Made by a program: the position numbers and the translations under genes. Below, piece by piece: positions 20,987-39,984 of a stretch of DNA of 40,397 bases (positions are counted from its first letter, which is position 1; each line of letters opens with the position of its first letter). The notes beneath the pieces were generated by a model that saw nothing but the letters and a program-made list of their open reading frames with translations, was not told the origin of the DNA and did not search any database. Source of the DNA: a virus (taxonomy: Duplodnaviria; Heunggongvirae; Uroviricota; Caudoviricetes); IMG/VR virus record IMGVR_UViG_2541047757_000012; one strand, given 5' to 3'.

Positions 20987-21328
20987 TTACTCCTTATGGG
21001 CACCGAACTTGTTACCGATGACCCTCATTGCCGCACCACGAATAGCATCAACACCAATCAGCCCCACCCCACCACCAATGGCAACAGAAAGTGATTTAGG
21101 CCATCCGACATACTCAAGCGCGGATGCAAAGGTCAGCGTCAGAGCACCACAAAGCAGAATCTCAAGCGTTTTTCGTTTCCAGCCGCCGCCACCGCCAAAA
21201 TAGGCAATGCGCAAACCAGCCATAATAATTGACATAACCACTGCACCCAGCGGCGTATCTCCACGCCACCAACTTTGTAAGAGTTCCAGTAAGTCAGGCC
21301 AGGAATGAGGGGCATTGTGCATTTTCAT
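20987..21328 (-). CDS. Holin with lambda-like dual start
   Basis: ATG-AAA-ATG (MKM) at 21328-21320 preceded by GAGGTGAGG; hydrophobic helices; immediately upstream of the endolysin. Confidence 0.65.
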   Translation of the reverse strand: MKMHNAPHSWPDLLELLQSWWRGDTPLGAVVMSIIMAGLRIAYFGGGGGWKRKTLEILLCGALTLTFASALEYVGWPKSLSVAIGGGVGLIGVDAIRGAAMRVIGNKFGAHKE

Positions 21329-21424
21329 AAGCCTCACCTCCGAGAGTTCGGATGGTGCTAAGTGTAAGATTCAGGCTCTCAGGCTTGCTAACAAGAAGTC
21401 GAGGATGTTTCCGGAGCCTAACAA

Positions 21425-21451
21425 CGAAAAAGCCCCGGGACATGCCGGGGC
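21425..21451 (-). terminator. Intrinsic terminator-like hairpin upstream of the holin
   Basis: Minus-strand stem GCCCCGG/CCGGGGC (21432-21451) followed by T5; lies between the moron gene and the holin start. Confidence 0.5.
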
Positions 21452-21545
21452 CAGATGGAGTGCCAGATTAAGCTTCTGGCGGTATATACTCGTGTTTGAT
21501 ATCGTTAAATCGCCAAAAGTAACAATTCAAACAAAGAGGAGTTTT

Positions 21546-21707
21546 ATGTCTGAAAAAAACAAGCCACAAGGTGAAAATAAACCTCAGCAACCCGTGGCAC
21601 CAAAACCAACTCCAACACAAAGTACTGCAGACTTTGCTACACGTCGTGTTTTTGTTGGAGATTCTGCCGACTCAGTCATTGAACATATAAAAAAACAGCC
21701 GAGATAA
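21546..21707 (+). CDS. Hypothetical small protein, 53 aa
   Basis: ATG at 21546 preceded by AAAGAGGAG at 5-nt spacing; Pro/Gln-rich N-terminus; 3' end overlaps the convergent minus-strand gene by 32 nt. Confidence 0.4.
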   Translation: MSEKNKPQGENKPQQPVAPKPTPTQSTADFATRRVFVGDSADSVIEHIKKQPR

Positions 21708-22245
21708 ACATCGCCGCTACCGGAGCAAGGATGGTATACATCCTTGCTTTATCGAGACTCGTGCGGATTTTCTCATTTTCCAACAGTAACTCTCTTGCTG
21801 TATCACTCAAGTCAACAAGGCGATACCTTCGTATAAGCGGCAATAACTTATCAGGTCCTAAATATCCTGCATCAGCGAATATTTTAAAGCTCGAGGGCTC
21901 CATATCCTTATATTTTTCATGATATAGATGATCAGGAGGGGCATTGATCAGGCCCCTAACCTTCACAGATAAACCAGTACATACCAAGTAAATGGCGCAC
22001 CATGTCCATAGTAATGTAAATGTGGTAATTCCGGCGGTGAGAAAATCGAAATTAGTTTTCTGTGTCAGCAATAAAAAAGATGAGCCAATTCCAACAATCT
22101 GAATGTTCAGAAGTTTGTATCCATTCTCAACATTGGTTTTGTTAGAAAGATGAATCTCTCGTATCGTCTCTTCCCCTTGTTTTTCAAGATAATCGACGAG
22201 CTCATCATCTACTCCTAAAAAATAAACTTTAGGTAGTTCTCTCAT
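21676..22245 (-). CDS. Hypothetical membrane protein (moron between late terminator and lysis genes)
   Basis: ATG at 22245 with GGAGGTGAG upstream; 189 aa with soluble N-terminus, central hydrophobic helices and a C-terminal TM; region is AT-rich. Confidence 0.6.
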   Translation of the reverse strand: MRELPKVYFLGVDDELVDYLEKQGEETIREIHLSNKTNVENGYKLLNIQIVGIGSSFLLLTQKTNFDFLTAGITTFTLLWTWCAIYLVCTGLSVKVRGLINAPPDHLYHEKYKDMEPSSFKIFADAGYLGPDKLLPLIRRYRLVDLSDTARELLLENEKIRTSLDKARMYTILAPVAAMFISAVFLYVQ

Positions 22246-22349
22246 CTCACCTCCACATCCTGTACTGAACACAATTTTACCAGAATGTCTCGATTCTAGG
22301 TATTCCGCCAGGAATCGCGCTCCAGAAATGAAACATCAGGTTCGCCAGT

Positions 22350-22383
22350 ACCAAAAACAACAAAACCCGCACAATGGCGGGTT
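22350..22383 (-). terminator. Candidate tR'-like terminator downstream of Q
   Basis: Minus-strand stem AACCCGC/GCGGGTT (22364-22383) followed by a T-rich tract, about 85 nt downstream of the Q stop. Confidence 0.45.
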
Positions 22384-22441
22384 CTGGTAAAGTTCATGCG
22401 CTTGGTTCGCCTCGCGATACAGCTTTGCGAAGCATACCGGA

Positions 22442-22470
22442 ATTGAAGCAGTTTATGCGTAAAAAATCAA
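22442..22470 (-). promoter_or_regulatory. Candidate late promoter (pR'-like)
   Basis: Minus-strand TTGATT (-35, 22470-22465), 17-nt spacer, TTCAAT (-10, 22447-22442); overlaps the Q stop; followed by the hairpin at 22350-22383. The -10 is weak. Confidence 0.3.
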
Positions 22471-23009
22471 GCTATTTTTTGAGCAAATGATTCTCGCATG
22501 GGAATATATAGGGCATACTCAGCAACAGCCAACCAATTAGCAATTCGCTTTTCGCATGTGCTAAAACACCACTCAGGATGTGCATCATTTAGCAATTCAG
22601 CCATTTTGCGCTTAGTCATCCCCCGTCCTTCATACCGTTGCCGGAGGACACTAATCAATCCAGGATGCTCTGCCAGCACCTCACTTATGACTCTATCAAT
22701 ACATAACGCCTCTGCATCAGTACAATGCGCCAGCCAGGTCTTTTGCTTGCCATTGATCATCTCTCGCAAAAACGCTTCCAGCTCAGGTTTCTCTATTCCC
22801 GCTTTTTTCATCCTGCGCAGGGCTTCATTGACGGCTGCTTTCGTCAATTTTTTGGATGCCAGCAACTGGTTGAACATATTCCCCGTCTTACCGCCGCCAA
22901 TATACGACCAGCGCCCCCACATACGCAGTTTCCCCTGAATCCAGACACTTTCCAGCGTTGCGAGACGAAGGTGCTCTCCGTTTTTTCCTGTATTCGTTGG
23001 ATAAATCAT
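22467..23009 (-). CDS. Antitermination protein Q-like
   Basis: ATG at 23009 (MIYPTNTG...) overlapping the upstream stop; motif LESVWIQGKLRMWGRWS; positioned immediately upstream of a promoter/terminator unit and the lysis cassette. Confidence 0.55.
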   Translation of the reverse strand: MIYPTNTGKNGEHLRLATLESVWIQGKLRMWGRWSYIGGGKTGNMFNQLLASKKLTKAAVNEALRRMKKAGIEKPELEAFLREMINGKQKTWLAHCTDAEALCIDRVISEVLAEHPGLISVLRQRYEGRGMTKRKMAELLNDAHPEWCFSTCEKRIANWLAVAEYALYIPMRESFAQKIA

Positions 23010-24454: not shown

Positions 24455-24610
24455 TTACTCCTCAGGTTCGTAAGCTGTGAAGACAGCGACCTCCGTCTGG
24501 CCGGTTCGGATTCGTACCTCGCAGAGGTCTTTCCTCGTTACCAGTGCCGTCACTATGACGGTTAAACAGATGACGATCAGGGCGACTAACATCGCCTTTT
24601 GCTGCTTCAT
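24455..24610 (-). CDS. hok: Hok/Gef-family type I toxin
   Basis: 51 aa MKQQKAMLVALIVICLTVIVTALVTRKDLCEVRIRTGQTEVAVFTAYEPEE, near-identical to HokD/RelF as I recall it; SD AAGGAGAAG before the ATG at 24610. Confidence 0.8.
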   Translation of the reverse strand: MKQQKAMLVALIVICLTVIVTALVTRKDLCEVRIRTGQTEVAVFTAYEPEE

Positions 24611-24760
24611 AGCCTGCTTCTCCTTGCCTTTCGGCACGTAAGAGGCTAACCTAGATTTGCCGTTCATAGATTGAGCCTCAGATTAATGTTAAGCGTCTTG
24701 CCGGACGCGTAATGTTAACTGGGGCTTTTCTCTGTCTGCCTTACAGTGGCATGCCTGAGG
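24611..24760. promoter_or_regulatory. hok leader region, expected site of Sok-like antisense RNA and mok overlap
   Basis: Inverted repeat TCTGTCTGCC...GGCAGACAG at 24730-24770; in hok/sok loci the antisense RNA is encoded opposite the leader. Exact boundaries not determinable by eye. Confidence 0.35.
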
Positions 24761-24948
24761 CAGACAGCCTCAAGCACCCGCAGCAATCTTACCGACACCG
24801 ATAAGAAAACGCTATTTTTTATTGCCAGCACCTTCTATCCAGGCTAATTTATCTGCGTCAGAACGGCGCAATGCGCTCGCCTGAGATACGTTTACTTGCC
24901 ATGGTAACAACAGGTAACGGCAATTGTTGTTTCTGTTTTGTTTCCTTC

Positions 24949-32329: not shown

Positions 32330-32724
32330 CTGAATACCTTATTACTGGTTGTGTGAGAACTCCAGTATACCACCGAGCCTGAAGTGGTAAAAAGACAGGC
32401 GCACAACACGAAGGCGCATTTCCGGTATTCATAAAGAGTCGGTCTTGTCTGTTAAATTTAAATGGTGGGAGTGCGCCTCCGGTTGTAAATAACGACATTG
32501 CTATGTGTAGTCTTTGGCGGCATCAGTTCTACTCCGTGGCTGCCCTGCCGCCCCTTTTTAAAGTGAATTTTGTGATGCGGTGAATGCGGCTAAGCGCACG
32601 CGGCACAGTTAAAAGCATCAGTGTTATGGGTGGATTATCCGGCGTTAATTGTTAACTGGTTAACGTCACCTGGAGGCACCAGGCACCGCATCGACAAAAT
32701 TCATTTGTAAAAATGGAGATAATT

Positions 32725-37857: not shown

Positions 37858-38052
37858 ATGCGGTATGAAAAAGTCAAACCATGCCCTTTTTGTGGTTGTC
37901 CATCAGTAACGGTGAAAGCCATTTCAGGATATTACCGCGCGAAGTGTAACGGATGCGAATCCCGAACCGGCTATGGTGGAAGTGAAAAAGAAGCACTCGA
38001 ACGATGGAATAAACGAACCACTGGAAATAATAATGGAGGTGTTCATGTATAA
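37858..38052 (+). CDS. ralR: Restriction alleviation protein Lar / RalR toxin
   Basis: 64 aa MRYEKVKPCPFCGCPSVTVKAISGYYRAKCNGCESRTGYGGSEKEALERWNKRTTGNNNGGVHV, closely matching Rac Lar/RalR as I recall it; SD GAGAG before the ATG at 37858. Confidence 0.8.
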   Translation: MRYEKVKPCPFCGCPSVTVKAISGYYRAKCNGCESRTGYGGSEKEALERWNKRTTGNNNGGVHV

Positions 38053-38233
38053 AATTACCGCCACTATTGAAAAGGAAGGTGGCACTCCTACTAACTGGAC
38101 AAGGTACTCAAAAACAAAGTTAACCAAATCGGAATGCGAAAAAATGCTCTCGGGGAAAAAAGAAGCAGGCGTTTCCAGAGAGCAGAAAGTAAAGCTGATA
38201 AATTTTAATTGCGAGAAACTTCTGCCCTCGTGA
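38045..38233 (+). CDS. Hypothetical small protein
   Basis: ATG at 38045 preceded by GGAGG; overlaps the lar stop by 8 nt; 62 aa. Confidence 0.4.
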   Translation: MYKITATIEKEGGTPTNWTRYSKTKLTKSECEKMLSGKKEAGVSREQKVKLINFNCEKLLPS

Positions 38234-39760: not shown

Positions 39761-39794
39761 AGACGCTTGCAACTGATTGATTTTAAATACAATT

Positions 39795-39897
39795 AAAAAA
39801 AGACCGAATACGATTCCTGTATTCGGTCCAGGGAAATGGCTCTTGGGAGAGAGCCGTGCGCTAAAAGTTGGCATTAATGCAGGCTTAGTTGCCTTGC
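39795..39897 (-). ncRNA. sdsR: sRNA SdsR (RyeB)-like host gene
   Basis: Minus-strand sequence GCAAGGCAACTAAGCCTGCATTAATGCC...GACCGAATACAGGAATCGTATTCGGTC + T7 matches my recollection of SdsR; sigma-S-like -10 CTATTCT upstream (about 39905-39911); terminal hairpin 39802-39828. Confidence 0.55.
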
Positions 39898-39984
39898 CCT
39901 TTAAGAATAGATGACGACGCCAGGTTTTCCAGTTTGCGTGCAAAATGGTCAATAAAAAGCGTGGTGGTCATCAGCTGAAATGTT

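Follow-up and report, generated by a model that had tools for sequence, protein, structure and literature searches.

The DNA directly behind a Q-like gene in a Caudoviricetes genome of the IMG/VR collection (record IMGVR_UViG_2541047757_000012) raises the question of how the late genes of this phage are switched on. The whole stretch analyzed, which we refer to as the window, is 40,397 nt long, and all positions are those of the whole stretch; the region behind the Q-like gene and the neighboring genes all lie on the minus strand, and the holin, endolysin, Rz, and terminase genes are downstream on this same strand. A first-pass annotation made from the sequence alone proposed a Q-dependent late promoter and terminator here. 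On sequence evidence, we consider it likely that the region switches on the late genes of a Rac-like lambdoid prophage and is arranged as in the pR' cassette of phage 21. The assignment as a pR'/QBE/SDPE/tR' cassette draws on a conserved layout, the form of the pause hexamer, the homology of the Q-like protein to Q21, and the covariation of a Q helix with a spacer hexamer, each of which is described below. That a promoter, a sigma-dependent pause signal, and a terminator should be arranged in this way is textbook lambdoid biology and unsurprising; the DUF1133 version is an uncharacterized member of the Q-dependent late-promoter kind. It is also common, in that the sequence of 22340-22480 is matched in 1464 of 5426 complete E. 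coli genomes, O157:H7 prophages among them, where the Q gene is annotated merely as a 'DUF1133 family protein.'

The Q-like ORF (23009..22467, minus strand) encodes 180 aa, and its ATG overlaps the stop codon of ybcO; an alternative ORF of 220 aa from an upstream ATG is present, and homologues are mostly 176 to 192 aa long. The protein belongs to DUF1133 in a Pfam scan (1e-107), and its PHROG match is PHROG 753, 'anti-termination protein Q-like.' It also matches PF06530 at 27.9 bits, just over the Pfam cutoff of 26, and PF06530 has been equated with the Q21/Q933W family in a structural paper on Q21 (bioRxiv 10.1101/651190). No match to the lambda-Q (PF03589) or Q82 (PF06323) families was found in the Pfam scan at an E value of 0.01. 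A single-sequence search of the PDB with the Q-like protein reaches Q21 only at an E value of 0.67, and a family profile was required; with a profile of 20 diverse DUF1133 proteins, the sole significant matches are the Q21 structures 6P18 and 6JNX (E value 1.7e-7), and hhalign of DUF1133 against Q21 gives a probability of 96.6% and an E value of 6e-10. The alignment spans the N-terminal W..G.L..WG.W motif and the helix-turn-helix region, and in the profile and hhalign alignments the DUF1133 proteins are missing the 13-residue loop with which Q21 contacts the minor groove. These profile comparisons make the DUF1133 protein a homologue of Q21 at the level of remote similarity, in agreement with the earlier call of a Q-like gene upstream of the promoter. 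An AlphaFold2 model of the Q-like protein, with a mean pLDDT of 51 from an alignment of 18 sequences, was set aside.

The sigma-70 promoter proposed to overlap the end of the Q gene has its elements where they had been placed: the Q stop codon TGA (22469-22467) sits within a -35 element TTGATT (22470-22465), which is followed by a spacer of exactly 17 nt (22464-22448) and then by TTCAAT (22447-22442), all on the minus strand. Taken alone, this match is weak and no better than chance. The -10 has T, and not the near-universal A, at position 2, which is why a consensus promoter scan left TTGATT-17-TTCAAT unlisted, and promoter-like sites are not enriched in the region, with eight found versus 13.1 expected from shuffled sequences. 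It is comparison with related loci that makes the promoter convincing. The -10 is of the extended type (22450-22442), with a TG at 22450-22449, absent from the earlier description, separated by a single c from TTCAAT; this TG offsets the poor hexamer. The composite pattern TTG-N17-TGnTTnAAT-N5-TAnGCT has one match in the 40-kb window, at 22431-22470, where 0.02 would be expected; there is some circularity in this figure, since the DUF1133 family itself contributed to the pattern.

For this comparison, we gathered 25 genomic loci (Q identity of 51 to 95%), four phage loci, and 243 viral-contig loci; the first scan of the viral contigs yielded close relatives only, and divergent queries were added in later scans. 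The arrangement TTGnnn-N17-N6-N5-TAnGCT adjoins the Q stop in 255 of the 266 loci with a recognizable Q (identity of 51 to 100%), where the presence of TTG and TAnGCT is by construction because both were imposed by the search pattern, all remaining positions being free. At these free positions, TG occurs at offsets 20-21 in 86 of the 90 unique promoter strings, and TTnAAT at offsets 23-28 is near-invariant, with its third base alone free; the third base of TAnGCT is also free across the 90 strings. The substitutions seen among the window's 78 close relatives are located in the spacer, in the 5 nt between hexamers, and at hexamer third positions. The spacer holds a conserved AAAcTGc (22454-22448), and the full TTGATT is constant throughout the 78 relatives and in each of the 33 sequence variants of this class, although this constancy may partly reflect coding, since the hexamer overlaps the Q stop codon. 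The geometry itself is not a coding by-product, because it is identical whether the Q stop lies in the -35, as in the 180-aa class that includes the window, or in the -10, as in the 192-aa class. The proposed promoter thus gains from its relatives the support that the two hexamers do not provide by themselves.

Downstream of the predicted promoter, a terminator scan identifies the hairpin CAGAACCCGC-CATTGT-GCGGGTTTTG at 22386..22361 (minus strand; 10 pairs, six of them GC), with the T-run TTGTTTTTGG (22360-22351) directly after it. The GC hairpin and T-tract reported in the first-pass annotation are therefore present on the same strand, 56 to 91 nt after the -10, and form a tR'-like intrinsic terminator (22386-22351). 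The second terminator that had been noted ahead of the holin gene was likewise recovered, at 21452-21421, as a hairpin at 21452..21431 (minus strand; eight pairs, seven of them GC) and then TTTTCGTTGT; the lambda-family holin gene S (PF05106, 2e-27) follows at 21328..20987. Both hairpin regions fold better than shuffled sequences, with z-scores of -2.3 for the first and -2.5 for the second. A strict intrinsic terminator lies within 200 nt in 254 of 255 loci, built from 42 distinct stems, and the predicted terminators are conserved in structure and not in sequence. In one locus (L186), the tR' hairpin has a tandem expansion of (CCCCG), about five repeats, between its arms.

Five nucleotides past the -10 lies TATGCT (22436-22431, minus strand), a -10-like hexamer unmentioned by the first-pass annotation, which we regard as a candidate sigma-dependent pause element (SDPE). 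Within the window's class it varies at the third base only, a variation that the search pattern did not impose. The curated annotation of the phage 21 genome (OL657228) provides a point of reference: pR' is given with a -35 of TTGACA, a -10 of AACACT, a 17-nt spacer, a transcription start, and a terminator, together with QBEu ATTGAGCA, QBEd AATGAGCA, and an SDPE 'TAAGCTG' beginning 1 nt after the transcription start. The TAnGCT of the DUF1133 loci therefore has the form of the phage 21 pause element. The distance from the candidate Q-binding hexamer (see below) to the pause element is 26 bp, equal to that from QBEu to the SDPE in phage 21. From the usual -10-to-start spacing and the phage 21 annotation, transcription would most likely start at about 22435, an A that is 7 nt past the -10, within a predicted start zone of 22438-22433 on the minus strand.

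R127 and R128 of Q21 contact bases of the QBE, and the Q21 subsite is TGAGCA (PMC6606751); the phage 21 QBE consists of two direct TGAGCA repeats 8 bp apart. In the window, the candidate Q-binding hexamer is TTACGC (22462-22457, offset 8-13, in the spacer), which had also passed unmentioned. In the 255 loci, the spacer hexamer changes without exception in step with the helix residues that align to Q21 R127/R128: an RR helix goes with TGAGC[A/C] (92 loci, plus one with a TGAACC variant), E[S/N/T] helices, together with one VS locus, go with TTGCG or TTGCA (80 loci), and the EK helix of the window goes with TTACG (82 loci). In the DUF1133 class whose helix reads TCRRR (TCRRE in Q21), TGAGCA or TGAGCC stands at offset 8-13, 26 bp before TAnGCT. 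The rule also held in two copies outside the 255 loci, with TTACGC accompanying TCEKRIAGW in the O157:H7 copy and TCEKRISNW in Rac-SA53. The promoter and pause hexamers of the O157 copy are TTGCTT-17-TTGAAT-5-TAAGCT.

Part of this association could be simple linkage, as the two motifs are only ~80 to 100 bp apart. Nonetheless, the types of transcribed region, which lie ~25 bp past the hexamer, have been reassorted among the helix classes, with type I found with both RR and ES/ET, and type II with EK and one RR locus; the link between helix and hexamer has thus survived recombination nearby. A second, directly repeated Q-binding subsite, such as phage 21 has, is not evident. Other classes carry a TGAGCA within their transcribed region that could be taken for a second Q site; it is better read as the 3' arm of the 5' hairpin (see below), because it is found with both the RR and the ES classes. 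The correspondence of two helix residues with a spacer hexamer amounts to a testable recognition code for Q21-type antiterminators.

Several other readings of this region warrant consideration. Taken alone, TATGCT is a better -10 than TTCAAT, and it could be the real one, with transcription starting near 22424 to give an RNA of ~70 nt, and TTGATT/TTCAAT being either inactive or a second, tandem promoter. At every locus, TAnGCT carries the critical A (position 2) and T (position 6), a combination that TTnAAT does not have, and in most other classes TGn precedes it (of the 90 unique strings, 74 have T at offset 31 and 87 have G at offset 32). The 5 nt before TATGCT in the window are without this TG, however, the immediately preceding bases being CGG, and there is no -35-like hexamer 16 to 18 nt upstream of TAnGCT in any class. 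Moreover, the TAAGCT of phage 21 is annotated as a pause element 1 nt past the start (for the mechanism, see PMC6606751), and the 26-bp distance from the candidate Q hexamer to TATGCT is that of phage 21, such that we consider a start from TATGCT unlikely. We regard as very improbable that the true start is instead directed from within the Q gene by TTGGCT-18-TATATT (22532-22503, minus strand), with the promoter at the stop codon being incidental: although it scores best among the sigma-70 matches close to the stop (nine of 12 consensus positions, and a position-weight score of 11.6 versus 8.2 for the promoter at the stop codon), it lies in conserved A-L-Y-I codons and is missing from other classes, and relatives erode it by synonymous changes (TACATT, TATCTA, and TTAGCT), so its conservation is that of coding only. 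The least probable alternative is that there is no promoter here at all, and that the hairpin ends the early or Q operon, with the late genes being reached by readthrough from upstream. Neither the geometry of TTG-N17-TGnTTnAAT-N5-TAnGCT, coding or not, nor the covariation of Q helix and spacer is explained in this way, even though a hairpin 80 nt past the Q stop would halt upstream transcription too, and the promoter match alone is statistically nonsignificant.

A rather different proposition is that selection acts mainly on the short RNA, as a trans- or cis-acting sRNA similar to StxS or IsrK that is constitutive in lysogens, with antitermination being secondary. The predicted RNA is ~80 nt in the window and 64 to 113 nt (median 74 nt) in the 255-locus set. 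Its first ~30 transcribed nt are near-invariant in the 78 close relatives, and all transcript types fold into the typical shape of an sRNA, in which a 5' hairpin starting from the pause element's GCU is joined by an A-rich linker to a U-tailed terminator; in the window, the predicted 5' hairpin is GCUUCGC...GCGAGGC (22433-22409, minus strand). There are sRNA precedents at the same genomic position in StxS (PMC7547250) and IsrK (PMC4825925). Against this, the short RNA matches no Rfam family, with no match in the switch region at gathering thresholds, and a permissive search of 21380-22560 returning chance-level matches only (E value above 2). We view this proposition as possible but doubtful as the main function, and note that an sRNA role is compatible with the late switch and not opposed to it. 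In close relatives, similarity to the window is lost ~65 nt past the start of the -35, where there are alternative terminators. The short RNA was also considered as a possible copy of HnrS, a 66-nt multicopy sRNA of EHEC prophages with reported complementarity to the 3' end of mazF (PMC13502914), but an identity with HnrS finds no support; no such complementarity to the mazF 3' end was apparent in the window or O157 transcripts.

The late-switch explanation, which we favor, would operate as follows. Host sigma-70 RNA polymerase would start at ~22435 from the extended -10 promoter, TTGATT-N17 with TGc abutting TTCAAT, and sigma region 2 would re-bind TATGCT at the transcript start, pausing the polymerase after roughly 12 to 17 nt. 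Without Q, the polymerase would resume and terminate at the hairpin and T-run (22386-22351), releasing the ~80-nt RNA. With Q present, the DUF1133 protein would bind the spacer at or near TTACGC, which begins 26 bp before the pause hexamer, and load onto the paused polymerase, rendering it terminator-resistant; transcription would then continue across tR', the cargo gene, and the terminator at 21452-21421 into the holin, endolysin, Rz, and terminase genes. A joint reading that goes well beyond the switch itself, and that we hold to be less likely than not, is that DUF1133 proteins would be a distinct branch of the Q21 superfamily that loads from a single hexamer 26 bp upstream of TAnGCT, without a minor-groove loop or a repeated subsite; that the branch would include at least three natural, orthogonal pairs (RR/TGAGCA, E[S/T/N]/TTGCGC, and EK/TTACGC); and that a constitutive pR' RNA of ~65 to 85 nt with a conserved 5' hairpin would act as a regulatory sRNA in lysogens.

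Between tR' and the lysis genes, the window carries an ORF of 189 aa (22245..21676, minus strand). It is apparently a membrane protein, from hydrophobic stretches judged by eye, and corresponds to phrog_11870, a PHROG without assigned function; it has no Pfam, PADLOC, or NCBIfam match. Homology among relatives breaks just past the start of the transcribed region, and the cargo ahead of the lysis genes differs from one relative to another: Rac-SA53 has the pertussis-like toxin genes eplBA, 683R6 has tRNAs, and O157:H7 has a methyltransferase with tRNAs. It is because relatives carry such differing cargo in the same slot that the earlier suggestion of a moron gene in a position analogous to that of stx holds. 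Homology to the holin modules of other phages starts only past the second terminator, at ~21368, and this terminator thus closes the cargo cassette. The holin S begins Met-Lys-Met (21328-21322, minus strand), a dual-start motif; in lambda, the dual start of S gives holin and antiholin. Holin S would be the first late gene reached by a Q-modified polymerase. The predicted positions of the switch, the pause site, and the Q site help to predict the timing of expression of the cargo, such as a toxin.

Two further features of the cargo region are of note. An extended -10-like TGgTAAAAT (22274-22282, minus strand), without a good -35, lies ~30 nt upstream of the ribosome-binding site and ATG (22245) of the cargo gene, and may allow the cargo gene to be expressed in lysogens from a promoter of its own. 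Convergent with the cargo gene is an ORF of 53 aa (21546-21707, plus strand), which has an ATG with a good ribosome-binding site and overlaps the 3' end of the cargo ORF; RefSeq has a 71-aa version of it in FDAARGOS_497, and it matches phrog_14506, also a PHROG without function. Neither of the two cargo-region ORFs has a match in PADLOC or NCBIfam. The position of this ORF corresponds to the site of moron insertion beyond PR' for which Tree et al. 2014 (PMC4104026) describe convergent sRNAs.

Of the known systems, the window is most usefully compared with phage 21, with which it shares a homologous Q, a promoter within a few bases of the Q stop, a 17-nt spacer, the form of the pause hexamer (TAAGCT in phage 21 and TATGCT in the window), a (here candidate) Q hexamer 26 bp upstream of the pause element, and a terminator within 100 nt with lysis genes downstream; the RR-helix sister class even uses the phage 21 hexamer, TGAGCA. 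There are, however, several differences. The window protein is only remotely similar to Q21, falls within DUF1133 in Pfam, and is without the 13-residue loop; its recognition residues are EK and its hexamer is TTACGC, with no obvious direct repeat. In addition, the pause element is 5 nt past the -10 in the window and 7 nt past it in phage 21, the window -10 is of the extended TGn type, and the annotated phage 21 terminator begins just inside the SDPE, whereas that of the window is separate from the pause element.

The other precedents are similar in logic or position. In the pR'-tR' region of lambda, the promoter behind Q is constitutive, the transcript starts with a -10-like pause element, and readthrough depends on Q (PMC9388147). 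The window shares this logic, with a short terminated RNA as in lambda 6S and predicted readthrough into S, R, and Rz, although the Q-lambda family (PF03589) is unrelated to the window Q. The lambda pR' RNA (6S) is 194 nt long. In Stx phages, the pR'-tR' region also gives a short terminated RNA in lysogens, with StxS having a 258-nt precursor and a 74-nt processed form (PMC7547250). The cargo slot between tR' and the lysis genes is common to both, and the Rac-SA53 relative carries toxin genes (eplBA) in it; the window differs in having an apparent membrane protein as its cargo and a predicted RNA of ~80 nt, and there is no sequence or Rfam similarity between StxS and the window RNA. Finally, at the antQ-isrK locus of Gifsy-1, a short terminated RNA is encoded right behind a Q-like gene, and some transcription reads through into the genes beyond (PMC4825925), and the short-RNA position right after the Q-like gene is the same in the window; there is no match to the Rfam isrK family in the window, and Gifsy phage records contain no protein matching the window Q at an E value of 1e-3. 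A paper comparing pR' regions (PMC6266700) contains nothing on the DUF1133 type of Q.

A few loci depart from these patterns or are otherwise unusual. A separate class with a 184-aa Q (L004, L007, L008, and L010; helix TCCSR) has a much stronger promoter, TTGACT-18-TATATT, overlapping the Q stop, no TAnGCT, and a CAAAAT ~13 nt into the predicted transcript. By analogy, the pause element of this class may lie further downstream, as does that of phage 82. In L002 (SerU-LTIIb), a truncated remnant at 2460-2851, flanked by duplicated holin genes, retains an intact promoter, pause element, and terminator together with the 3' portion of a DUF1133 Q gene; this shows that the cassette is mobile as a whole. 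Two sequences have host or bin assignments that look doubtful: L011, a metagenome-assembled contig labeled 'Candidatus Nanosynbacter,' has an E. coli-type Q (93% amino acid identity), and L004, labeled 'Actinobacillus phage vB_Apl-pPE4,' has an E. coli-type Q (~86% identity) with hok-like, DUF1367, and ybcO neighbors that are also of E. coli type. Elsewhere in the window, Rfam matches are found to RalA (38051-38229, minus strand), sok (24605-24779, minus strand), DicF (32502-32553, plus strand), and the SraC/RyeA-SdsR pair (39791-39935, both strands), the last being a chromosomal sRNA locus situated toward an end of the window; these matches mark a Rac-like lambdoid prophage.
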